A stretch of 63,987 nucleotides of DNA, filler included, from Licmophora abbreviata (GCA_900291995.1; 17 parts of 17 records of this genome joined end to end with filler, not necessarily neighbours in it); one strand, 5' to 3'; positions 21,206 to 56,693 are shown, counted from the whole stretch's first letter. Translations and numbers: made by a program. The notes: a model not told the origin generated them from the letters alone.

Positions 21206-22991
21206 ATGCCGTCAACGCGTCGACAGAAAGCCACGTTTGGAGAGCAAGAAGAGAAGAATGCTGGAGAACTAGAACAGTTGAAACTGACGCCGACGACACT
21301 CCCGTCAAGAGGCAGTGGCAGCTCGATGGGGTCGTCTACGAGACTTACACTGACTTTGTGGCTGCCAAGCGGGCACGAAATCAGCAACAGCTGCGCAATA
21401 TTGGTCTGATCAAAGCGGTGGACGACCTGCGCGATGCTGCCGCCACCAAGAAGGCGTCTCAACGAGGCATTGCACGCAAGCGCAAGGGGGAACCTGCTGT
21501 CCCCCTGACACGTCGCAAGTCCAATCGACTGGCTGGCGTTCATGCGGACGNNNNNNNNNNNNNNNNNNNNNNNNNNNNNNNNNNNNNNNNNNNNTTAATT
21601 AATTAANNNNNNNNNNNNNNNNNNNNNNNNNNNNNNNNNNNNNNNNNNNNAGTAGTGGAAAGTTTGTCATTGGAGGCCGGGCGACAGCAGCAAACACCCC
21701 GAATGACAACGGCGAAGAACGAGAGTCTGCTGCTCCCGATCATTTTAACGATCGAGTCAATGACGGATCAGGCCTCTCCATCACGCAGGCCGTCGAACTT
21801 TCAGGACCCAAGTGGATCGATGAAGGCTCTTCTGGCAGGGCAGAAAAGTTTGTGAGCGAAGATCTCATCGTCACCAAGAACCGTGCTGTCAAGAGCCCGA
21901 CGTCAGTTGCTCACTGTGTCGATTTCGACTCGAAGGTTGGACAACTCTCGATAGACGATCCTGGTCTTGTTGCCAAAGTCACCCCTGAACGAATCTATTC
22001 TGTGGCCTGTCATCCTTCGGCCGAATCTTTGATTGTCTGTGCTGGTGACAAATTAGGTCATGTTGGGATGTGGAACGTTGACGACCGCTCCGACGACCAT
22101 GATGGGGTTCATCTCTTTCGCGTTCACACGCGGCCTGTCACATGCTTGGCGTGGACACCTACTGGAAGCTCTCTACTCTCATCAAGCTACGATGGCTCCG
22201 TCCGCTGGTTGGACACAGAATCCCAGACGTTCTCACAGATCTTTGCGACCTTTGACGACTCGGTTACCTATCGCAACGAGCTTGGCCGAGGCTTCGACGG
22301 AGGCTACAAGGATTGGGTACAGTACGTAACTCCCGACCATCGGAACGCATCTGAAAAGTGCTTCTTTATGTCAACCTCGACGGGAATGGCGACGCACGTT
22401 GATCTTCGTGCTGGGAAGGGAAAAGTGACCTTCCACGAACAGCTCAGCGAAAAGAAGATCAATACTCTCAGCCTTCACTGCAATGGAAATACGCTGGCTT
22501 CAGCTGGTCTAGACTGTGCAGTCCGCCTTTGGGATATTCGTAAGTTTGGTGACAGCCGACTCGGAAAGCACCAGCCACCGAAAGCTTTTGCATCACAGCA
22601 GGCAACGAAGTCTATCAACAGCGCATTTTTCTCTCCGAGTGGGTCACGACTTCTGTCGACCACTATGGCGGACTCCTTAGACCTGACAAACAACCCCCAC
22701 TTGGCCAAGAACACTTTCAAACCAACCCGTCGCATTCGGCACGACAACCGTACTGGGCGCTGGCTCAGCACGTTCATGGCTCAGTGGCATCCCCAGCAAG
22801 ACATGTTCGTCTCTGGGTCCATGCAGCGACCTCGAGCGATCGATGTCTTTGATGGAGACGGAATCCGATTGCGTGCCATCCAAGGCGAGGCGCTCACTGC
22901 CGTGGCCAGTCGGTGCTGCTTTCATCCGTCTTCAGAGCGGCTAGTTATTGTCGGCGGCAACTCCAGTGGCCGCCTTTCGGTTTGCCGGTAA
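21206..22991 (+). CDS. WDR76: WD40 protein WDR76/Cmr1-like (gap and one probable 1-nt error near 21268)
   Basis: KVTPERIYSVACHP, AGDKLGHVGMW, INSAFFSPSG and HDNRTGRWLSTF; the N-terminus has RARNQQQLRNIGL and RRKSNRLAG. Confidence 0.88.
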
Positions 22992-23227
22992 ATGTGGATG
23001 GAAGGGATAGTGGTGCACATAACAAGGACGAGTCGATGTAACGACAAGAGGCACTTTGGGGGAATTTAAGGAGCTTGTGGTGACTATAGAACTTTCTCTG
23101 CTGATACCTTGTCTAAATCAAATGTGATACCGGTAGTCATGCATCGAGCGTTCCAATCTGCCATGACCCAACCATCCACGTCGATCACGTCGACTTACTT
23201 AGCCAATCAACCATCAGTTCCAGACAT

Positions 23228-23881
23228 CTAAGGTGAGCAGGACGACTTGAGGTAGGCAATTAGGTCCTTGCGCTCCTGCGGTTTCTTAATGCCTGCGAAC
23301 ACCATTTTCGTTCCCTGGGGGTCGATCGAGAATAGGAGTTCAACAATGACTTTGTAGTTAGTTGGGAGGTTTCGACCGCCAAGCTGAAAATTGTCGTCGT
23401 CCTAATACCGCGTCGTCGTCCGGGTAAGTTCTCGGGTTCGCCGCTTACTAAGCAGCCCCCTCGAGTCGATGCCGTCCACGTAAATCCTTTCTAATAAGAT
23501 AGGAACAGACTCGACACAGCGACTCGACTCGACTCGACTCCCGTTGCTTCGCAGTCTGCGGTGGCACCGTCGGTACAGTTCCACACTTCCGTATCCCCAA
23601 AAGTCGACATTGAGGTCATGGCCGTTACTCACCTTGATGTACTTCTTCGGGTTCTCAAGGTAGTCAAAGAGGGTGTCCTCTCCCCACATGATCCCGGACT
23701 TCTTGTTGGCAGACGAGTACGAGTATCCGTCAGCCTGTCCACTCTGTCGTCCAAAGAAGCCGTAGAGATTTGGTCCCTGCTTGTGCGCGCCACCCTGCTC
23801 GACAGTGTGGCACTGCGAGCACTTGGTCTTGAAGACCTTGGCTCCCTTCTTCTCGTCACCGGGCTTTGCTTTCTTCGCCAT
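23228..23881 (-). CDS. CYCS: Mitochondrial cytochrome c
   Basis: Exons 23881-23633 and 23314-23228. CSQCHT heme motif, KQGPNL, and [21 protein letters not shown]. Confidence 0.97.
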
Positions 23882-24329
23882 GGTCTATTCCTGCTGCAAG
23901 TTCAACCGTTGATCGGAGGATTGTGGGCGAAGAGGGAATGAACCTTCGCTTTCGATGAGGTGGTTGCATTGACTGTAGAATTTGTACCGGTACCTACAGA
24001 GGCGAACAAAAAGTGTGGAAGCGAACCTCGAACCCCGCAGACCACACAACACGCAACGACCTTCTTGCGTAGACACAGTACAAGCTCAACGTGCGATTGA
24101 AGATGACGAAGTCACATCAATAGCTGGAATCAGGAATCAGGAGTCACAGAAATGATTTCCGTCTCGTACTTTCACTCAGGGGGGTTACCTTCCTCAGTCA
24201 TGCCGCCGAGGAGCTGGAGCCACAACACAAAGTCAGGTGCCCTATTCGATTCCCTCGCCTGCAATCTCCGCATGAAACTTCAATGTCAGCATGACTTTCA
24301 CTCCAACCTTCTCCGCAAGTGCCTCAAGC

Positions 24330-25500
24330 ATCTGGACGGGACTCTGGCGTACCTGATATCGTACTGCCTCGATGAGGTCGAAGTTCGGCCACGTGGGTTG
24401 CATGTAGCGCTCGCCGAAGCACCGTCCTAGTGGGCCTGCCCCATCGCAACAGATCTCCACACTCCCACGCTCTATTTGGTGAACTTGGCAGAGTAGATTG
24501 ACCAATGTGACCGCGACGACTGTGCAGTACAATCCCCTGGGATGACATTATATCCGTGTATGTGCTCCTCCGACAATGGCAAGTTCAGGACCGTAGCAAT
24601 AAAAGCGGAAGTTCCAAATTGCGTCTTAAAGGAACCATCACAGACAATAATTGCCTCGCCCCGTCGTATCGCCACTGCTATCCTGTCTTCTGCCTCCATG
24701 GCGCATATAGAGAGATCCGATACAGCCCACTGTAGAGAGCTGAGAAGGGATGCAATGGCTGATGCAAGCAAACGCGGGACCGAGGGGGTTATATGGGGAA
24801 GCATGCTGCCAGCATGATATCCTGAATGAGTCCACCAGTCACTGTGCTGTGTGACCTTGGTACGATACACCTGACTGGTTGGGCTACCCGCCGTGCTCGG
24901 GAATGGTCCTTGGTATTTATTCCTCCCCGGGCGTTGTGGGTACCGGTTGTAGTATTCCCAGGTGGACGGTTTGCACCGGTGGTACAGTCTGTCTTCCTCA
25001 GGGTGTAAAAACCAGGGCCACGCCGCCTGAAGGGTTTCGTTCCAGGGCCCAAGCGGAATTGGAAGTGACTGGCTGATCTCTGTGGGACACTCCGAACACG
25101 GATATGAGAGCCTGCCATTGCCATACTCGAGACCAGTCTGGCTGCCGTAGGAATAAGACCTTGTCGTGGCCACACATAAGGTGAATATGCCCACTCATCC
25201 CAATGACCAGCCCAGGCTTCCTTGGTAAGTCTTGTCCCAGCCCCATCCCAGATACTATCTGCCATGGTAACGGCACATAAGTACAGCCGTCAGCCATTGA
25301 GCCGCGCCATTTCCGCTGCCAAATACTGAGTCTTGAACCTCTGGTGCATAAGGAAGCGATCGCCCGTCGGGCAAAGAGTGAGCTGGAAAGTGGCATCTTG
25401 AATCGTCATCCCGTTCTCCCATAAATACCGCCATGTATGTTTGACCCAGCCCTCGGTGACGAGTCCCCCTTACTGGCTGAAATTCTGGCAACTGGGCTTG
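24330..25500 (-). mobile_element. Degenerate non-LTR retrotransposon fragment with RNase H domain (Ambal-like, diatom type)
   Basis: IIVCDGSFK...GTSAF, NVIPG...QS and VEICCDG...FDLIEAVR in broken frames; truncated before the expected C-terminal RNase H motif. Confidence 0.65.
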
Positions 25501-26006
25501 GTTTGCAGCTCGCTAAGAGTCTTGGAATTGGTCCTTGCTTGTTGTTGGAGGAGTTGGAGCCACAGCAGTAGCCGATGGGAAGTTCTCCGCGCCTCCGCTG
25601 ATGATATCTTCCGCCGAAGACATGAATGACCAAATATCTGCCATTGGGGGTCACTCCGAATCTATTCCTTTTGTTGGCCTAGACAGCATGCTGCCTTTTT
25701 GATCTGATTTCTTGATCACAGGCTGGTGACTCTCCTTACGCACCGTCGTACTCTTGCTTTCTTTCACCATGGTGGATTGCTTGATGTGCTTCCTTCACAT
25801 TATTTAACGGACACTTCTATTCTTTTCTAATTTAAGCAATGTGGCTTTCCAAATCACAAAGGCTCGTCCAAATCTGGCTTAAATTGATTTAAAAGTGAGT
25901 GATTGAAGTCTCAACTGGCTGAGTTTTGTGTTTTTGTGCCCATGGCCTATTTTCGGTTCCTTGATTCTGCGCGAGTTTCAGTCCATTTCTTTGGCTGACA
26001 CTTTAC

Positions 26007-26990
26007 TTGAGGTCTCATCCTTTCAGGGAATGGGCGGATCCGAACACCCTGTTTGGCTACATGAGTGTCATTCACTTGGATGAAGAGATCAATGAATATG
26101 CTGTCAAGGCCGGCTTCCCAAATTGGTACTTCACATCCTATAGTCTTTGTCGTGGAATGGTCAATCAGACGGTGTGGAATATGATTCTTGGGGGACAGAC
26201 GCGTGAGGAGGCAACTCGTGTTGTGAAGAACAGAATGCGATGGGCTGTATCCGGAGACACAGTGGAAGACTACCTCACTCCCCTTGGTAAGATTCAACGC
26301 TGTATTTGATTTGTTGTGTTTTGAATGTCTCTTTTTGGTAACTAATGCTTCCATTCCGCCATTTCATAAGTCACACAACGATGCGAGGAGATTGTAGAGG
26401 ACAATCAGGCCAACTTGTTTCCAGATGGGGTTACCAGCATGACCTTGGTGCTGGAGAGGCACCCGGATCTTGCTGGTATCCCCAACTATCTTGTGGGTGC
26501 CAACAACGATGAGCTGCCCGGTCCTTGGCGCAACCGCCGGTTCTGTCATGGAGACGGGCAGCCACCGTGCTTTCTGAACGTTCTCAATCATCTTTGGGCT
26601 GCTGTTGTCCCTCCAAATATGCCTGCAAACTACCTGGCAGGCCTCGCCAATGGGGATAATCTTCTCAATCTGCTTCCCAGTGTTGGCACTAACTTCTTCG
26701 TGACCTTCGGANNNNNNNNNNNNNNNNNNNNNNNNNNNNNNNNNNNNNNNNNNNNTTAATTAATTAANNNNNNNNNNNNNNNNNNNNNNNNNNNNNNNNN
26801 NNNNNNNNNNNGCTATCAGCCACCGCAGCGCCCATCTTGCCTTGTACGAGCTCATCCCTCCTCAAGTTTGGTGTGGGCTTGGGAGCATGAGCTGCGCAGG
26901 CGGAGGAGGAGGTCGAGACGTCATATCTACTACAATGGAGCCCGTTATGATCTCATCAATCTAAGGAGAACTCAGTGTGCATTGCCTTAA
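26007..26990 (+). pseudogene. Tyrosine-recombinase-like gene copy A (C-terminal half, Crypton-like), with intron 26287-26370
   Basis: AGFPNWYFTSYSL(C)RG...RW...TVEDY. Splicing restores YLTPLVTQRCEE. Homologous to copy B down to IYYNG. Confidence 0.65.
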
Positions 26991-27210
26991 TTTTTGTCGG
27001 ATGTTTCCGCGATTGGCCCGGTTGGCATCGCTGTGTTCCCGCGATGCGTACAGATGCCTTGGTTGTTGGAATTGGAGGCTTGGTGATGGAGATATGGCCG
27101 TCAACGTTTTTCCAGTTGGCACTTTCGATTTTTGGCGTCTTACTCACTGCCCCTTGTTACCACTCCTTGTTTCTTTTCAGGCACTTATTTAGTACCCAAT
27201 TCTATATCAT

Positions 27211-29958
27211 CATGTTCACTGCAGGTGGTCGTATTGCTCCTGGTGGTGCTCTACTCCAGAATGCGATGGGACAGACCATGGCATTGGCAGAGGACAAGAC
27301 ATCCATGAGTGGGATTGGTTTGCCCCAAACTCAAAGGTTGCCAGGCTCCGTCAACAATTTGAGAATGCACTGATTCCAGCATTTCTGCAGTTCCAGGTAG
27401 CACAGAATGGCCCAGATGCCAATGATCTCCCGTTCTACCAGGCTGCCGCACTACGTTTGGTTTGCTCTTGGGCATTTTCGTCCAGTGGTATCATTTCCAC
27501 CAGTAAGTAAGCAAGCTGCCCTCTGTAAGTTTGTGTTCCAACTGCTTGCTCTGCATTCATTTTCTCACATCACTCCTTTACGTGCAATGTGCTCCTCCCA
27601 CAGTGATGACGGAGTTGCAAGCATCAACTATTTCTGGGGTGCACCTCTCCGTCATGTCTATGCCCTGTTGGGCAGGTGATTTCCTGGTCTCAATGCATCC
27701 ACATGTCAATCCAGAAGAGGGCGTCAACCTTTTGCTTTGTTAATCCCGTTTCTTGATCCGCATGAAGGACTTCGTGTATGCCAGGCTCGGCAGTCTTGAT
27801 CCTGAGACCACTGTTAGAGTTTGTTTGCTACACCATCACCAGATTAAGAGCTAGCCCTCACTACAACCAGATTGAATATACATTGAGAATTGAGCAAGAT
27901 ACCGTCCCCACAGTGTTTGCTTTGGAGTTTTGAGTCTTGGTGCTGGTAAGTGAGAGTTTTGTACTTTGATATTTTTGTGGTTTCATAGTTGGGATCGTAT
28001 CTTGATAACAACTTGCCTTCTGACTCTATATTTGTTTGCTACACCATCTCCAGATCCAGAGCTAGCCGTCACTGCAATCGGATTGGATATACATTGAGAG
28101 TTGAGCGAGATACAGGCTATCAAAATTGGTTACTTTAGATTCTCATGAGTTCAACTCTGTTTGCTTTTGATTCTATCATGAAGCATCCACTCCTCAACAA
28201 ACTACCTCTTTCCTCTTCTACAGATTACTTGCTAGCATCTGACATTCTTTGTAGGATGGCCACACAAAGTTCTGGAGCTTTTGACATGGTCGCTCAGGCT
28301 TGCCAGGGATCATCCAGCTGTGTTTGATGAACACAAGTCACGCAAGAAGAAGAGGCTTGTGAAGCAGCGCATCAAGGATGATGTGGCTTCTTACTTTCAG
28401 TATCTAGTCGGCCTTGAGGGTGAGGGAGCGGATGAGTGGGCTTGGTGGGAAGCCAGCTCAGAAGAAGGGGCCACCAAGGGTATCAATCATCTACTCTCAT
28501 CTACTCTCTTCATGGCCTTTGAGGTATTTATGAACCACTTCCCCAAACAGCTTGCCCATGCTGGCTCGCCAAAGGACCTTTTCAGAGCTCTGAAAAAGAA
28601 ATCTCCCTCACTTTGCAGTGCAATGGAATACGGAAAGAACATGAGTGTGAACCGGCTACATGACAAGAGTGGTGCGTGGCCCATGTACCGGCTGTGATGC
28701 ACATCCTCTTTGCCGGTGTGTGAATCCCTCTCCTGCTACAGGATATAAACTTGCTGCCTACATCCATGCAAGTCTAGATCTTGGACACAGAGGGATCTCT
28801 TTCCTCCAAAGGATGCCCTCCAAACTTCAACAGCGAGATGGGAGCTGGTGGGCCCAAGCTCCAAGCTCCAAACAAATCATCAACCAGAACTTTGAGTATG
28901 CTCCTCTGTCGGCGGACACTGTCTATTGGCTGGAGAAGTATCTTGTGTCAAAACCATTCTCAGATCTTGAGAGTCCCAACAACCTGTTTGCCATCTCATC
29001 CATTGAGTCTCTTGATAGGGACTTAAGCCGGCTTTGCATCTGGGCAGGTTACCCAAAGGCTTACTTCAGCAGCTACAGCCAGTATGCGAAAGGGATTTGC
29101 GGACACCGTCATTTGTAATGCAATTCTAAGTGGAGTTGGTTGTGCAGAGGCGATGCAAATTGCAAAGGGGCAAGGTGGCTGGAGTTTCAATGCAAACACA
29201 ATCCGTTTCTACATGTCGGAGTTGGTCAACCGTTGCCAGTTGGTCTTTGGCAATCCAGCTTATGTCAATGTCGACTGTTTCAGCACTCATCAGCAGCAAC
29301 CAGATCTCATGGCCATCCCGGATTCCTTGGGCCCGGCTCCGCTGTTTGAGATGCCTCAGTGCTTCCGTCCCAAGAGGATTTGTTCCAATGATGGAGAGCC
29401 TCTTACTTTCGTGAACACCCTACAGGAGATTTGGCGGATGGTTCGTACTCCGGAAGACCAGCTTTTGTTTGCGAATGTAGCGAATGGTGGGATACTTACT
29501 TCGAGGTTGGCAGTGATGGGCACTCGCTTGTGGGACCAGTTCGACGAGCAGATCCATGACACCTGCCTGGGACCAGGCCTGTACCAGTCTAGCTCCCAAT
29601 CCTGACATTGCCGCGCACGTCCGGCAAGCTTGTGCTACACTGTTGAGCATGATTGTGCATTCAGCCTTTCTCACACCAGCTATGGTCCAGCAAGCAAACT
29701 TTCCTGTGCTACCTGGTGGTCATATCTTGGACTTCTGTTTGCTGCCGCGCCTACCAGACGACCATGTTGTCGTTGACCGTCCCAAGTTCAGTGTCTGCAG
29801 CTCCAACACCTCGGATTTGGGAGGTCTCAGGATGCACGCCTTGCGCAGGAGGAATCTCAAAGTCAGGCTCACTATTTACTACAATGGACAAGAATGGGAT
29901 GTGAAGGACTTGACCAATGCACAGTGTGAGTTGTTGAAGAACAATGACAATCCTGAAA
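27211..29958 (+). pseudogene. Tyrosine-recombinase-like gene copy B (Crypton-like), frameshifted
   Basis: LGHRGISF (Arg I), AGYPKAYFSSYS-MRKGF (box II), GGWS and IRFY (Tyr) within 28256-29958; upstream degenerate ORF pieces from 27211. Confidence 0.7.
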
Positions 29959-30210
29959 NNNNNNNNNNNNNNNNNNNNNNNNNNNNNNNNNNNNNNNNNN
30001 NNTTAATTAATTAANNNNNNNNNNNNNNNNNNNNNNNNNNNNNNNNNNNNNNNNNNNNTCGGTGAACAGGAGAATCCACAGGTCGGAACTTGGAATTGGG
30101 CAGCAACACAGCCCTAAGTAGTAGTCTTATGCATTAGTTTAAATTAGTTTGTGTGTCATGTAATGTTGTATCTCATCTTGTATTAACAAATAACTCCTCC
30201 GCCTCCCCCC

Positions 30211-30974
30211 GTGTTCGTATCGAAGCTAAGCCTAGCCTTCCAACATGACAGATCTTCGCAAGCCTTTGGCTTGTGTGTTGTTGCTTTTGAACATGACGAA
30301 TAGTCGCGAGCCTTTGAATGGTGTGTTGGCTGGTGTGTTCGTATCATAGCTAAAGCTAGCTTTCACACATGACAAATAGTTGCGACCTTGGCTTCTGTGT
30401 TGGTGTGTTGGTGTGATAGCTAAGGTTTGCTAACGACCATGACGAATCATCGCAAGCCTTGGCTTCTGTGTTGGTGTGATCGTATCATAGCTAAGGTAAG
30501 CTTTCGACCATGACAAATCGTCGGGAGTCTTGGCTTGTGTGATGGTGCGTTTGTGTGATAGCTCAGGCTAGCTTTTGAACGTGACGAATAGTCGCAAGCC
30601 TTGGCATGTGTGTTGCTGTATTTGTATCATAGCTGAGGCTGGCTTTTTGGTGAGTTCGTGTGATAGCTAAGGCTAGCTTTCGACCATGACAAATAGTCGC
30701 GAGCCTTGGCTTTGTGTGTTGCTGTGTTCGTGTGATAGCTAAGGCTAGCTAACGACCATGACAAATCGTCGCAAGCCTTGGCTTTGTGTGTTGCTGTGTT
30801 CGTGTGATAGCTAAGGCTAGCTAACGACCATGACAAATCATCGCGAGCCTTGGCTTTGTGTGTTGGTGTGTTTGTATCATAGCTAAGGCTAGCTTTCGAA
30901 CGTGACGAATAGTCGCGAGCCTTGGCATGTGTGTTGCTGTGTTCGTATCATAGCTAAGGCTAGCTTTCGAACGC
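30211..30974. repeat. 72-bp tandem repeat array (about 10 units, some truncated)
   Basis: Unit GCTGTGTTCGTGTGATAGCTAAGGCTAGCTAACGACCATGACAAATCGTCGCAAGCCTTGGCTTTGTGTGTT, e.g. starting at 30721 and again at 30793. Confidence 0.95.
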
Positions 30975-30992
30975 GACTATATCCTTGTTCCC

Positions 30993-32570
30993 ATGTCTCC
31001 CAAGAAGAATCCCTACTACTTGACCCCAGCAGCCTCCAAGAGGGCCCCTGCCATTGCCCCTGCGAAGACTGTGACGCCATCCAAGAGGAGGCATCATGAT
31101 TTGGACGAAGAGGACTCGGTTGAGGTTGCTTCTGCGTCTGCTCCAAGAGCTACTGCGACTCGATTCGCAGCTGCAAGTGCTCTAGGTGCCGGTGCTTTGG
31201 TTGTTGCCGGTGGAAATGTGAGGAATCCCATGGCTCTCTCGATGCAAGCGTTCCCTGGGGCCATGCCTTCTCAGAGTTTGGAGCCTGTGTTGAACATGTT
31301 GATGAGCAAGAACCATCTGTTGNNNNNNNNNNNNNNNNNNNNNNNNNNNNNNNNNNNNNNNNNNNNTTAATTAATTAANNNNNNNNNNNNNNNNNNNNNN
31401 NNNNNNNNNNNNNNNNNNNNNNTGTGCCCAAGTCACATTCTTCTTAGTAGTGAGTTCACATACAAAACGTAGCTATGACAAATATTTATGTGATGACTCA
31501 CATCTTGCCCACTTGCAATGTAGTTCAAGTTCTGCTGCCAGGACTCATCCTATGGTCGTTCCTGGGGTTGATACAATTATGTAGTAAGTTTGAAGGGAAA
31601 AAATCTGAACTGGCCTGTCAAGAAGCAGGTCCCTGTGAGAAGTTACAGTCTGAGATAGTCTACAGTTTTGCATTCACAGCAGTCTTGATGAGAGTTTTGT
31701 ACACAGGTATCTTTGTGGCTTTATTTCTTGACAACCATTCACCCTCTGACCATCTTGATTTGATTGTATGCCATCTACAACAGACTCGACTCACAGCTAC
31801 GTGCCAGTGCAATCAGAACCCAAATCCATTGTTGTGCACAGGTATCTTTGTGGCTTCATTTCTCCACAACCATCCTTCCTCTGACCATATCAGTTTGTAT
31901 TGTACGCCATCTACCGGCTCCCAGCTATGCCAGTGCAATCTGATTGAAAACCAAGCTGCAGTCTGAACAAGTTAGCTGAAGCATCCTATAGATTTTGGTG
32001 AGTTTCAATTGTGTGTCTCTCTTGCTCCTAATATGAATTCTCACTCACCAACTGACTCTTCTTCCACTTGTCCAGATTACTTGTTACTACTTTATTGTTT
32101 TTGTTAAGACAGGAAACTCTTTTTTGTAACATGGCCACAAGAAGCCCAGGAGCTTTCGACTTGGTCCTCGGGCTTGCCAGAACTCATCCTGATGTTTTTA
32201 AAGAGCACAAGTCCAGGTAAGAATGTACTTCTAGTACCTAGTTGGCCAGGAGGGCAACCGAGCTGATGAGTGGTCTTGGTGGCAAGAGCACCCACTTGTC
32301 ATCATCCTATGTGTTTATGTCTTTCGGCCCCACTTTCATAAACAATCAAGGCATGCCTCATCCAAACCTTCCCCGTTTAAGTACGGCACCCCCCATCCCC
32401 TCTTCCACTACCACGTATTATACAGATCTTACACACGCCTTGTTCCTCACAAGGGCCCCCAGGCTCCTTTGCGCTAATTCTACCCCAAACTTCAGACTTT
32501 GGAGAAATCAACATTTGACAGGGACATGAGGGGCTCTGTATGGCTGTTGTGGCCCAGTGTTTGCCTGGAC
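30993..32570 (+). pseudogene. Tyrosine-recombinase-like gene copy C (N-terminal part only, degenerate)
   Basis: MATRSPGAFDLVLGLARTHPDVFKEHKSR and GQEGNRADEWSWW match copy B MATQSSGAFDMV..LARDHPAVFDEHKSR and GLEGEGADEWAWW. The upstream DNA is also similar. Confidence 0.6.
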
Positions 32571-33654
32571 GTATCATGTGATGAGTGGAGAGAGAATAGA
32601 ACCCATGATGGCACTGACAGCCAGGCTAAAGGCTCTTAATGAACTGTGGAAAGTCCGGCCAGCTCGAATATGACTTCTTACATGGGTCGGCCGATAGAAA
32701 AACCCGTAGTGAAACACACGTAGATGGATAGGCTTAAAGGGCTCAATCCGTTCTCCCCTTCAAAAAGTCAATACATACTTGACGTCCAGCCAGTGGATAT
32801 ATTGTCCTTGCAGGCTTTCCCTCAGTGCCTAAACAGAAACTATGGAGTGGTAAACAGAAGTTTAATACCTGACGAGCGACTTAAAATGATTAGTCGTGTT
32901 TTCCCTTCAATTTAAATTTCCAGTGGCCTTTATCAATTTGTGAATCTCATAATAGAAAACAATTGCGAATACGTTTCTCATCTCAGGGAAGCTAGTAGCA
33001 CATCCTTTTTTCTCTGTAGCCATTTTGCGAAGTAGCACTTGGATCAATACTTTTCTTGCGAGAGGCTTTGGACAGTAATGCGGGTGAGAGCGTCGCTAGA
33101 AGCATCGTTATTTCTGTAAATTCAGTCGAACACAATTGTCACAGTCACAGTTGAAGCTTTCTGCGTGACTCACTGCTACGTTCTCGCATTTGTTCTCCTC
33201 GTCATATTAAAACCCACCAATAGCCATGGCATTGCCTCTCTTCCTGATAGAAAATGAGGGCTTCTGAGGACTATGCTGCTTGAAACGAAGAAGAAGAATC
33301 AGATGCAACACATCTTTGCACCGGCACTCGTCGTCAAGAGCCTGCCCCCCATCGACGCTGATTTTTCGTCAGGGATAAGGGACGAGTTGCTGACGTACGG
33401 AGGGTTGGACATCTCCCTGCCATCAATTGGGTAACTGTCAAAAACGACCACCAAAGAAGCCCCCAGCAGCTTGACATAAGATTGACGTTTATTGCAAAAG
33501 ATAATCAACGTGAAGATTACTCTTTGTTGTGCCTCTCCCCATGGGCCCATGGGGNNNNNNNNNNNNNNNNNNNNNNNNNNNNNNNNNNNNNNNNNNNNTT
33601 AATTAATTAANNNNNNNNNNNNNNNNNNNNNNNNNNNNNNNNNNNNNNNNNNNN

Positions 33655-52608: not shown

Positions 52609-54593
52609 ATGGCTCCTTCTTCCTCGTCACGTCGTGCGGCGTCGAAGAATGGTTCCGCATTGACACAGTATTTCCTGGTAATTCTGATGCTGTTTGGATG
52701 TTTGACCTTGTGGATGAACACGCTGCATGGCGGTGGCAGCAATGACCAGAAGGCAATGATTGAAGCCTTTAAGAAGAATCATTTCTCTCATCGAAGTATC
52801 AGGGAAATGAAGAAAAAGAACCAGATACAAGGAACTGGTGAAATGGAGGACACTGCTGACACGGATGATGCGGAAGAGGATGCACGCCATAACGAGGCAG
52901 AGATGCGTCAGCAGCTTAAGGAGGGGGAGACGCGCCTGAAGGACGGCCATGTGCTCACTGGCTTGACCTGTGACGTCCACGGAGGGCCTGCTCCTGAAAA
53001 TTCAAAAGAAATGGTCTACTGGGAAGATATTGAGTCCGACAGTCACTTTGTGAGTCCTTTCCACGCAAAGGACCGGAAACAGTACATGACGTTCGAAAAA
53101 GACCAAGGCGGATGGAATAACGTAAGTATGCTCTCTAGAAGGACCCTAGTCGCGATATCGTCTCAAATCGCTCACCAGACTCCGCCAACATTCTTCTTCA
53201 ACTCCCTTGCAGATACGAATGAGTATGGAATCTGTTCTGGCCCTGGCAGTAGCGACCGGACGGACCCTCGTGCTCCCCCCAGAACAGGGCATGTACCTCC
53301 TTTCCAAGGTAAGAACTGGAGTCGGCGTGTATCATTGCGACACTTCCGTGTCGACTCATCCGCTATTCTTTTGCTGTTCCAAAGGATGAAGCTGGCAAGC
53401 AACGTAAACACTTTTCGTTCAATGACTTTTTCCACATGGAATCCATTGCCAGAGAGCACGATGGACTGGACATTATTCACATGAAACAATTTCTAGAGGA
53501 CGTGGCCATGAAGGGACAGCTGAAAAACACTGAAACAGGTCTCGTGGAATTTCCACCAGAAAACCGGACAGATTGGGACGGTGCGAACAACCATCAACTC
53601 TACGACTACCTCCGTCGAGTCACATTCTGGCCGTGGTGGGACCCCGAAGACTGTATGGCGGCCTTTCCATCCAACCCGCAACATAGTGATAAGTTACGGC
53701 ACATGAAGGAACAGATTGACAAGAATGGAGGATTTCCTTCCTACGAAGAGTTTGTGGGAAAGCCGAATCCTGTAGACGCTCCTCCAGAAGCCCGCCTCAA
53801 GGAGAATTGGGCTGGTCGCAAGGATCTCTGTTTGTACAACGAGACATTACAGGACGCGCCGGTCGTTCACTTTGGGTACGACTATCGTGGCGCTGGTGCA
53901 CGTTTGCTTGTGCACTGGTACGCCTTCCTCTTTTTCGAGGATTGGCGCCATGATTTGTTTTTGAAGCGCTTTGTACGGGACCACGTGCGATATGTAGACG
54001 AAATCCAGTGTGCTGCGGCCCGAATTGTATCGGCATTGCGGGAACGTTCCAAGGCTCGGGGAATGGGCTCAGACTTTGATACATTTCATATTCGTCGAGG
54101 AGACTTTCAGTACACTGTGACGCGTTTCGAAGCCGACCATATTCATCGAGTGAGCAAAGACAAGCTGACTCCTAATGCAACGGTATACATTGCGACAGAT
54201 GAGCGCAACCGGACATTCTTTCAACCACTGGCTGATCACTATGATGTCGTCTTCTTGGATGATATGAAAGACCTCATCAAGGACGTCAATACTAATTTTT
54301 ACGGCATGATTGACCAGCTGGTAGCGAGCCGTGGTCGAGTCTTCTTTGGGTGCTGGTTCTCGACCTTTACTGGCTACATTATGCGGCTACGAGGCTACCA
54401 CGCGGACGAAGAAGAGCAACCCGGGTATGAAGATGGCATTGTACCGAACTCCTTCTACTACGCTCTCGAAGACCGCAAGGAGCACATGCAAACGTTCTAC
54501 CCGGTGAAGAAATCATTCTATGCTCGCGAGTTTCCCGCGAGCTGGAGAGGCATCGATAAGGGCGCCGAAGAGCTGTCTTCTGCCGTGGCATAG
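52609..54593 (+). CDS. GDP-fucose O-fucosyltransferase family protein, copy 1 (2 introns)
   Basis: GGWNN|IRMSME, GRTLVLPP, HIRRGDF, YIATDE, MIDQLVAS and STFTGYI. Confidence 0.9.
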
Positions 54594-54995
54594 ACGTTGA
54601 TAAGCTCAACACGCAAAAGTAGTCTACACCCTTACCTGTCCTGTTCTTTAGTAGTCTAGCTCAGAATAGTGAACACAAAAAATCGCATTGGTACCTGGTA
54701 CCCGGTCTACCGGAACGGGTATGCATAAAACCCACTCGAAAAGAGTCTACACGGACGAGGGACAGAGCAGTCACACAAGTTTGGCGCGCAAAAATTTCGA
54801 ATTTGAGACGAAAATGACCTGATGGCGAATGCCGACCTCAACGGCGACGCAACATTGAGTTACTTTCACGGTCTCAAATTCTTCACGTGATAGACCCCGA
54901 CGGCTAAATGGGCCAAGGACGCTTAATTGTCACGAGCAGCGTCCGGAAGTAGTACCATCGTACGTTCTGATAGAGGGACAGAGCAGAAAACTCCG

Positions 54996-56693
54996 ATGAT
55001 ACGGACGAACAGTCTCGTGTCGCACCTCGCTCTCTTGCTTACGGTGGGGTGCGCGATAACTCTGACTCTCGATATTTTCTGGGTATTTCAACTTGATGAA
55101 AAGGGATTAGAACTAGTCCATCTCTTGCAGTCGAGGAGTCTGAAGCTGCGACTGATAAGAGGAGGTCAAGGGGAAGTATCGCCAGTAGTGTCGTCCACGT
55201 TCTCCTCGCTGTCTTGTCAGGCGCATGGAGGGCCTCACAATGAAGCAGCCACAGAGGAGATGGTGTACTGGAAAGACATTCCTTCTGATAAGGCCTATGT
55301 CAGCCCTTTCTACACCGATAGCGATGAAAAGTACCTTCTGTTCGACCCGGATGTGGGAGGCTTCAACAACAAGCGCATAGCCTTTGAGACTTTCCTTGTC
55401 TTGGCTCATGCCATGGGTCGAACGCTGGTGTTGCCGCCCAGGACGTGGTGGTATGCATGTGCACCGCAGAATGACACTTTGCAGAGCAGCCCACGAAACG
55501 GGTTTGACGACGTGTTTGACGTTGAGGCTCTGTCACGGCAACAAAGAGGTGTCAGGATTATCTCAACGGATGAATTTCTCGAGCAATACGCGTTGCAAGG
55601 CAAGTTTCGGCACTCTCAGACCGGAAAAGCAGTGTTTCCACCGAAAAACAAAACAGACTGGAACAAAGTATTTCCAAGACAGCTGAGATTGTGGTTAGCA
55701 AATGTAGCCCATACCATGAACTGGCGTTACGAGGACTGTGTCACCGCGTTTCCATCGCGAAAGACGCCAGAAGCTTTCGGACACATCGAGGAAATGTACA
55801 GTGACCTCGTTGCGAGACACGCCTGGAGTGAGAGGAATGTGACGCATCCAGTGCCTGTCGATGCACCACCTTCTGATCGCCTTATTGAGATGGTTCCAGA
55901 ACCCACAAGTCTCTGCTTGTACACAGAAGATATCCACCAGAAAGACGTCATCTACTTTCATTTCGTTGTTGACTTCAGCAAGCCCAACTATCGGGATGAC
56001 ATGATTCGACTCCTCGTATACTTTTATTCGTTTACGTTCTTCGAAGATTGGATGCAAAGCTTACGCATGAAACGAATGATACGCGATCATGTGCGCTATC
56101 GAAATGAGTTTCAGTGTGCGGCGGCCCGCATCGTGTCTGCCGTGAGGGAGCGAGCAAAGCAACAGGGGTCCTCAGGAGAGTTCGATACTATGCATATTCG
56201 ACGTTCGTCCGATTTCAAGGGGCAGTTTGGGAATCTCATGTCAGCACAGGCGATTTATCAAGCTTCCAGGGCATACTTGGAAGAAGGCAGCTTAATCTAC
56301 ATTGCGACAGATGAACCAAACCGTACCTTCTTTGAACCCCTTGCGAAACACTACGAGTTGGTGTTTCTGAGCGACTTCGACGACCTGATACCAGGGTTTC
56401 ACCCGTACTTGCTCGGCATGATCGACCAACTTGTAGCGGTGAAAGGCCGCACCTTTGTGGGAACATGGAGTTCGACATTCACAGGATATATCAATCGGTT
56501 ACGAGGCTACCATGCAACAAAGTTAAAGCTGGAGGACTACAGGGATGGAGGGCTCAATAGCTACTACTACAATTCGCCAATCAAGAATGAGACAAGAGCA
56601 TACCGTTCGCCGGTGAAAGCTTGGTTCACTCGTGAATTCCCGCTCGCATGGCGTGATATCGATCATGATATCGAAGAAGTGTCGATCTCCTGA
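54996..56693 (+). CDS. GDP-fucose O-fucosyltransferase family protein, copy 2 (intronless)
   Basis: GGFNNKRIAFE, GRTLVLPP, HIRRSSDF, YIATDE and STFTGYINRLRGY. Confidence 0.9.
   Translation: MIRTNSLVSHLALLLTVGCAITLTLDIFWVFQLDEKGLELVHLLQSRSLKLRLIRGGQGEVSPVVSSTFSSLSCQAHGGPHNEAATEEMVYWKDIPSDKAYVSPFYTDSDEKYLLFDPDVGGFNNKRIAFETFLVLAHAMGRTLVLPPRTWWYACAPQNDTLQSSPRNGFDDVFDVEALSRQQRGVRIISTDEFLEQYALQGKFRHSQTGKAVFPPKNKTDWNKVFPRQLRLWLANVAHTMNWRYEDCVTAFPSRKTPEAFGHIEEMYSDLVARHAWSERNVTHPVPVDAPPSDRLIEMVPEPTSLCLYTEDIHQKDVIYFHFVVDFSKPNYRDDMIRLLVYFYSFTFFEDWMQSLRMKRMIRDHVRYRNEFQCAAARIVSAVRERAKQQGSSGEFDTMHIRRSSDFKGQFGNLMSAQAIYQASRAYLEEGSLIYIATDEPNRTFFEPLAKHYELVFLSDFDDLIPGFHPYLLGMIDQLVAVKGRTFVGTWSSTFTGYINRLRGYHATKLKLEDYRDGGLNSYYYNSPIKNETRAYRSPVKAWFTREFPLAWRDIDHDIEEVSIS

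Follow-up and report, generated by a model that had tools for sequence, protein, structure and literature searches.

A 63,987-base stretch of DNA from the diatom Licmophora abbreviata (GCA_900291995.1), called the window in what follows, carries three homologous copies, named here A, B, and C and all on the + strand, of a gene of the tyrosine recombinase (YR) type. These copies were recognised by translation and by tblastn of their pieces against the window, with E values far beyond chance, and in this respect an earlier preliminary description, which had reported three homologous copies on one strand, is borne out. What escaped that description is that all three copies are defective, with A truncated, B frameshifted, and C reduced to a 5' stub, and none of them can make a full enzyme now. 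From these sequences, we conclude that A, B, and C are decayed genes of a rare and unannotated eukaryotic YR family. The features of the locus are as follows, with lengths in nucleotides (nt).

25992..26286, + strand: copy A, earliest exon still present, coding for the last part of the YR catalytic domain (YSLCRG, RW, EDY), located by tblastn and alignment
26287..26370, + strand: copy A, intron of 84 nt, GT-AG (GTAAGA...AAG), phase 1
26371..26711, + strand: copy A, exon after the intron, with the opening part of the C-terminal domain, cut by the end of the contig
26814..26990, + strand: copy A, 3' part on the contig after the gap, coding for the C-terminus, stop at 26988-26990
28256..29958, + strand: copy B, gene body, full length from the ATG at 28256, with four frame-breaking indels
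~28292, + strand: copy B, frameshift 1, one base more than in copy C by DNA alignment
28692..28695, + strand: copy B, frameshift 2, a single surplus base within CTGT
29080..29083, + strand: copy B, frameshift 3, four surplus bases that part the ..YS codons from the MRKG.. codons (box II)
29562..29565, + strand: copy B, frameshift 4, a CCTG tandem duplication
30061..30117, + strand: copy B, 3' end of the gene on the contig that follows, 18 codons (..WNWAATQP) and the stop
32062..32381, + strand: copy C, B-like 5' remnant with its ATG at 32131, located by tblastn and DNA alignment

The homology of A and B is carried by four tblastn pieces, with identities of 43% over 51 amino acids (aa) (E 3e-10), 26% over 191 aa (E 2e-13), 35% over 85 aa (E 2e-11), and 40% over 53 aa (E 1e-7), and amounts to 33.8% identity over 260 aligned columns. 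Copy C matches the N-terminus of B in three pieces (E 2e-12), and B and C are closer to each other, also having upstream DNA in common, while no non-coding DNA common to the A and B units was found. No fourth copy exists elsewhere in the window.

In copy A, the homology begins abruptly at ~25992, which corresponds to column ~261 of the family alignment, and the N-terminal half of the gene is not detectable upstream, even at E<=50. This copy consequently has no core-binding domain, no Arg I, and no hairpin Lys, and its catalytic sites read Y, C, W, Y, the first two sites being missing. Its box II is YSLCRG, and since the nearest database relative, numbered P0016, has YSLRRG there, Arg II has been replaced by Cys. 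The spliced junction of A, TPL/V, is the same as in the relatives P0005, P0016, and P0017, and the relative P0010 carries a 25-codon in-frame insert exactly at the intron site of A, evidently a read-through of the same intron. After the second exon, about 73 codons are missing in the contig gap, and the C-terminal piece that follows is of the A type, 56% identical to P0005, with an end shorter than those of the relatives.

Copy B, in turn, covers the whole family alignment and reads R, K, Y, R, W, Y at its catalytic sites, and the 547 codons of the frames used hold no in-frame stop. Its four frame changes were considered as introns and this was ruled out, since each is of 1 or 4 nt and the homology runs without a gap on both sides, so that they are indels. 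The characterisation of the family as intron-containing in the preliminary description is therefore not supported, as the 84-nt intron is the only one and lies in A. The motifs quoted there are present, but the FSSYS...MRKG of B does not lie in one frame, being split by the four bases at 29080-29083.

We compared these breaks with contigs of four public runs (X1, X2, X3, and X5) on contig 8 of the window, with a sparse coverage of 15, 5, 4, and 3 of 30 bins, which reaches frameshifts 2 and 4 but not frameshifts 1 and 3. Runs X2, X3, and X5 matched this contig over 839 nt with zero differences, and the sequence at frameshift 2 was found at 100% identity in two of them, in a piece of X5 at 28614-28814 and in a piece of X2 that starts there, at 28690-29027. 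Run X1 comes from a diverged relative, with pieces from <90% to 100% identical, and it is without the four bases at 29562-29565, which restores the reading frame there, so that the CCTG duplication is evidently a frame-breaking indel polymorphism between related populations. The run comparisons thus indicate that at least one of the breaks of B is genuine and one is polymorphic, and, because no stop codons have accumulated, B looks like a young pseudogene.

Copy C consists of ~70 nt of upstream DNA common with B, followed by the first 60-90 codons of the gene, damaged by a 40-nt deletion and by frame changes, and no homologous sequence was found downstream of this remnant.

The window is a composite, in which 32 runs of 44 N make up 16 spacers of the form N44-TTAATTAATTAA-N44, joining 17 contigs. 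Those touched by the YR cluster are 21651-26711, 26812-29958, 30059-31322, and 31423-33554, with spacer junctions at, for example, 26712-26811 and 29959-30058. What had been taken as scaffold is in fact a series of contigs with artificial spacers, but their order is supported by A and B, which span the junctions. Copy A, cut at the contig end 26711, picks up again in register at 26814-26990 on the next contig by tblastn, and P0016 gives one single alignment spanning 25992-26984 of the window (E 5e-63); copy B is cut at 29958, and its conserved tail and stop open the next contig at 30061-30117. Two genes staying in register over two consecutive junctions argue that the contig order is real, and the adjacency on which the preliminary description had made its reading depend thus holds; it rests on the A and B junctions, the junction ahead of copy C having no gene that spans it. 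Elsewhere in the window, several further junctions have an open frame reaching them from each side (for example 45289/45390 and 62097/62198), which suggests that the file order of the contigs follows the real scaffold.

Relatives of these genes are few. When 1.84 billion representatives were scanned in full by HMMER with the stretch of B from box II to the C-terminus, 11 proteins came out at E<=1e-3, two of which were rejected on reading as spurious matches to repeat proteins, and the remaining 9, together with P0012, form 10 clusters with 18 sequences, labelled "hypothetical protein" or nothing. Intact relatives have 549-602 aa. The assemblies behind all 18 members are those of JGI, ENA, or Logan; named diatom proteomes and MMETSP transcriptomes contributed none, though the searched database contains such sources; no oomycete protein was among the family matches. 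Further homologue searches with P0006 and with a family alignment gave only P0006 and P0012. Pfam gave nothing on the window pieces and no DUF3504 match among the family rows, and no relatives of P0012 were found in metagenome contigs. A degenerate DNA pattern for HPDLA.IPNYL, a motif of the C-terminal domain, did hit one metagenome locus (L002) and one bacterial locus (L003), which were dismissed as chance (motif only, 34-39 aa, E 0.006).

A maximum-likelihood tree of 13 rows, which left out near-duplicates, fragments, and the two spurious hits, places A with P0016 and P0010 (support 100/99) and B with P0001 and P0003 (98/96), the A-containing and B-containing clades being sisters (99/98). 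As A and B are each nearer to sequences of other sources than to each other, they are, by this tree, old paralogues and not the outcome of a recent local duplication.

The fold of the family was approached through the intact relative P0012, whose AlphaFold2 model, built from a 16-row alignment, has a mean pLDDT (predicted local distance difference test) of 75.5. A Foldseek search of the PDB returned 33 matches at E<=1e-3, the best being 1pvp_A (E 4e-6), and the matches listed are Cre and Xer recombinases. VIA-align superposed the model residues 31-351 on Cre (1crx_A) with Z 15.7, a root-mean-square deviation (rmsd) of 7.1, and 268 aligned residues. With the catalytic domain only, 3nkh_A was matched at Z 12.4 (rmsd 3.7, 180 aligned) and lambda Int (1ae9_B) at Z 10.2, the rmsd of such matches being 3.5-3.8 and type IB topoisomerases standing lower in the list. 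The comparison with the Cre/lambda Int fold that the preliminary description had proposed is in this way passed by P0012. In sequence, hhalign gave a weak match of the family to Cre of phage P1 (E 0.043), which nevertheless pairs HSLRAG with HSARVG, GGWS with GGWT, YYLD with NYIR, and the Lys of VKQ with that of TKT, and a sequence-profile search of the PDB returned two chance rows (E 1.1). On the model, the intact relatives would have Cre-like core-binding and catalytic domains at about residues 27-350. The family is thus like Cre, Xer, and lambda Int in that both domains match structurally and box II, the Trp, and the Tyr align motif for motif, and it differs from them in a sequence identity of 12-15%, in an unconserved His II, in an extra C-terminal domain of ~250 aa, and in that its genes are eukaryotic, one of them with an intron.

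The conservation of the catalytic sites was counted in the database relatives covering each site, where P0004 and P0014, among the 10 rows, share one 90% cluster.

Arg I: 10/10 relatives
Hairpin Lys: 8/10 relatives, the remaining 2 having Lys one column on
His II (HxxR): His in 1/10 relatives (P0012), the others having Y, T, S, R, S, S, Q, K, and G
Arg II: 9/10 relatives
Trp: 12/13 relatives
Tyr: 13/13 relatives

The nucleophile and both arginines being kept argues for a retained chemistry. The observation that both A and B have Tyr at the HxxR His position, made in the preliminary description, is correct, but the "YxxR variant" proposed as a trait of the family is not sustained, because this position, with His in 1/10, is hypervariable and by all appearances unconstrained, so that a Tyr there defines nothing. 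The C-terminal domain of ~250 aa bears the motifs HPDL..IPN.L, LPGP.R..R.C.NDGE, and a terminal W-x-x-A-x-T-x-P. Modelled from P0005 (pLDDT 71.9), it gave 0 Foldseek matches in the PDB at E<=1e-3 (best 0.85), and in a wide VIA-align search over 48,161 chains none reached Z>=5 (best Z 3.8); as far as its model goes, it is a new domain. We hold it to be highly probable that this is a family of the YR fold with all three of its copies in the window defective.

The surroundings of the cluster contain repeats and, upstream of copy A, further open reading frames (ORFs), namely:

21651-22991, + strand: WD40-repeat ORF, an ordinary host gene upstream of the cluster
23402-23884, - strand: cytochrome c domain ORF, an ordinary host gene upstream of the cluster
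24472-25194, - strand: ORF of 240 aa, with an RNase H type-1 cluster as nearest protein-atlas cluster (score 0.95, a lead only)
27820-27902 and 28031-28113, + strand: two 83-nt direct repeats, 88% identical and 211 nt apart, upstream of B
30211..30965, + strand: tandem array of a 71/72-nt repeat, ~10 units, from ~100 nt past the stop of B
31697-31817 and 31832-31943: direct repeat pair upstream of C, 79% identical, within a stretch (31689-31943) of short repeats akin to those upstream of B

A short motif is common to the upstream regions of B and C (27951-27986 vs. 31689-31724). An ORF that follows the 72-nt array (ATG at ~30995) runs into the next gap and has no match to the YR family. The ORF at 24472-25194 has no Pfam match; broken ORFs in other frames go on to 25678. 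Situated beside the point where copy A loses its 5' part, this ORF could be what is left of a retroelement. In the ORFs of 23.4-34.8 kb, no reverse transcriptase (RT) or other mobile-element domain was found with Pfam, nor any capsid or polymerase domain, in agreement with the earlier statement that no RT is linked to these genes, and no long direct or inverted repeats bound the YR region within the window, artificial spacers aside.

The other contigs of the window carry ordinary eukaryotic genes, among them ALG11, a PUB/UBA protein, a COP9 subunit, a WD40 protein, a DEAH helicase, an FKBP, a histone deacetylase, two O-fucosyltransferases, and a DUF6824 protein, for which domain a literature search found no paper naming it. 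The two neighbouring GDP-fucose protein O-fucosyltransferase ORFs, at 53313-54593 and 54927-56693 (+), are apparently a tandem pair. The histone deacetylase ORF has 112 relatives at E<=1e-30, and the named ones, from NCBI, EukProt, and MMETSP, are nearly all diatoms (Chaetoceros, Thalassiosira, Cyclotella, Stephanodiscus, Conticribra, Skeletonema, and Attheya), two others being the ochrophytes Triparma and Chrysoparadoxa, with identities up to ~57% for named matches and up to 68% for metagenomic sequences. This agrees with the diatom host presumed in the preliminary description, and by these identities none of the sequenced species found is close to it.

What kind of gene family decayed here is best approached through the known eukaryotic elements that encode a YR. 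The part of the survey of Kojima and Jurka (2011, PMC3212892) on which we draw describes CryptonS as the stramenopile Cryptons of oomycetes and of one diatom, Phaeodactylum tricornutum, with a protein that has the YR and a conserved C-terminal region but no GCR1_C, with TATGG as the terminus in most, and it gives R-H-R-Y as the catalytic tetrad of Cryptons. Going by that description, the present family is like CryptonS in being YR-only, RT-less, and of low copy number, in its stramenopile host, and in a C-terminal region other than GCR1_C. By the same partial account, it is unlike CryptonS in that no 5-6-bp terminal direct repeats or TATGG ends can be assigned here and no C48 peptidase ORF was found at the YR locus, and unlike the R-H-R-Y of Cryptons in its hypervariable His position. 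As in Cryptons, the YR is the sole element enzyme found at the locus, with no same-strand RT, RNase H, or gag domain in the Pfam search of the ORFs of 23.4-34.8 kb and no long terminal or inverted terminal repeats in the window, the RNase H-like lead at 24472-25194 lying on the opposite strand. The DIRS, Ngaro, and PAT elements also encode a eukaryotic YR, but they carry a same-strand RT and RNase H together with terminal repeats, whereas here no RT was found, and the RNase H-like lead is on the other strand.

Because the family is YR-only and RT-less, and because its layout of a YR followed by a conserved C-terminal region recalls CryptonS, our leading interpretation is that the three copies are relics of a mobile Crypton-type, YR-only element, a proposition on which we find our own judgement evenly balanced. 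The analysis shows the homology, the fold, the residue pattern, the defects, and the adjacency of the contigs; catalysis, mobility, and an affinity to Cryptons are what we infer for the family. A mobile or dispensable element is favoured over a core host gene since the catalytic set is kept, since the family is absent from the named diatom proteomes in the searched database, and since all three copies are decayed. Under this interpretation, intact members would clamp DNA in the manner of Cre, the conserved Tyr would attack the scissile phosphate with the two Arg, the hairpin Lys, and the Trp assisting, strand exchange would proceed via a Holliday junction, and the element would leave as a circle and re-insert at a short matching sequence, as in the Crypton model.

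Several points weigh against this interpretation. No definable element ends or terminal direct repeats were assigned at the locus, and TATGG, the usual terminus of CryptonS, occurs 84 times vs. 73.8 expected, which is at chance level. No near-identical copies exist in the 64-kb window, and the array appears to be old, or assembled from different lineages, and not the product of recent tandem insertion; the tandem integration proposed in the preliminary description is thus not supported, with no element ends found, no near-identical copies, no flanking DNA common to A and B, and A and B being old paralogues. The intron position common to A and P0010 seems to fit vertical gene inheritance as well as a transposable element, and the old A/B split together with this conserved intron fits a birth-and-death host gene cluster nearly as well. 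The fold tests, furthermore, were made on P0012, which is 28-38% identical to the window pieces, and not on the window copies; PF00589 was matched by 2 of 17 rows, weakly (best E 0.0018, 18.5 bits, below the gathering score of 27.1); and full activity is uncertain because the HxxR His is unconserved.

The strongest rival, possible but on balance rather unlikely, is that these are host genes specific to a lineage, descended from a YR (domesticated or cellular) and not mobile, which evolve through tandem duplication and loss and of which an old tandem array is now dying. The sister clades of A and B, which split before their nearest database relatives diverged, speak for it, as does the intron position common to A and P0010, together with the upstream DNA common to B and C, as a segmental duplication would give, the host genes (WD40, cytochrome c) upstream of the cluster, and the homologue contigs of 2.3-3 kb with one ORF each, which could be transcripts. 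A known comparison is with the DUF3504 proteins, domesticated Crypton YRs such as KCTD1, ZMYM, and WOC, which, in the part of the 2011 survey used here (PMC3212892), have lost the catalytic Tyr and the second Arg. The present family resembles them as a set of YR-derived eukaryotic genes able to persist without mobility; unlike them, and this counts against the host family, it keeps the Tyr (13/13) and Arg II (9/10), plus Arg I, Lys, and Trp. The lack of any member in the named diatom proteomes and in MMETSP, both present in the searched database, also tells against host genes, and the breakage of all three copies implies that they are dispensable.

Further from the evidence stands a separate, undescribed YR family outside the four Crypton groups, free of the HxxR His, with the new C-terminal domain, and forming same-strand arrays via recombination of incoming elements into a site beside resident copies or in their flanks, which we judge improbable; if it were true, the repeat-bearing upstream regions common to B and C and the 72-nt array after B would be putative recombinase-binding sites.

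Still less probable, and in our view very unlikely, is the possibility that A, B, and C served as the integrases of some larger inserted element with several recombinases, be it virus-like, polinton-like, or a composite transposon; a larger element carrying several recombinases had been proposed in the preliminary description. YR genes do occur in integrated algal viruses, and two leads, to be read as leads only, point the same way, namely the nearest Atlas feature clusters, which include eukaryotic Phage_integrase and ALOG, and the RNase H-like ORF 0.8 kb upstream on the opposite strand. Such an element would be at odds with the lack of capsid, polymerase, RT, or other mobile-element domains in 23.4-34.8 kb, of long bounding repeats other than the artificial spacers, of element ends, and of flanks common to the A and B units, and with flanking genes that are ordinary eukaryotic ones; and three scans of 2.9 million viral contigs found no relative, with 0 matches for the HPDLA.IPNYL pattern and none for P0004 and P0016. 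The least probable of all is an assembly artefact, with contigs that are not adjacent or B frameshifts that are sequencing errors in an intact B, for although the window is stitched from contigs, no independent contig lies over frameshifts 1 and 3, and run X1 is without frameshift 4, two genes stay in register over two consecutive junctions, and X2, X3, and X5 are identical over 839 nt of contig 8, frameshift 2 included.

In summary, YR-only elements belong to the most poorly known transposons of eukaryotes. The part of the 2011 survey that we use reports only one diatom case of them (PMC3212892). For this particular genome, the finding is an ordinary one, three dead copies that are to be annotated as pseudogenes, and most likely the cluster adds modestly to an element type already known. 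For the family, nevertheless, the locus defines a small, unannotated group of YRs with a Cre-like fold and a new C-terminal domain, in which the supposedly essential HxxR His is free to vary and whose intact relatives are open to biochemical test.

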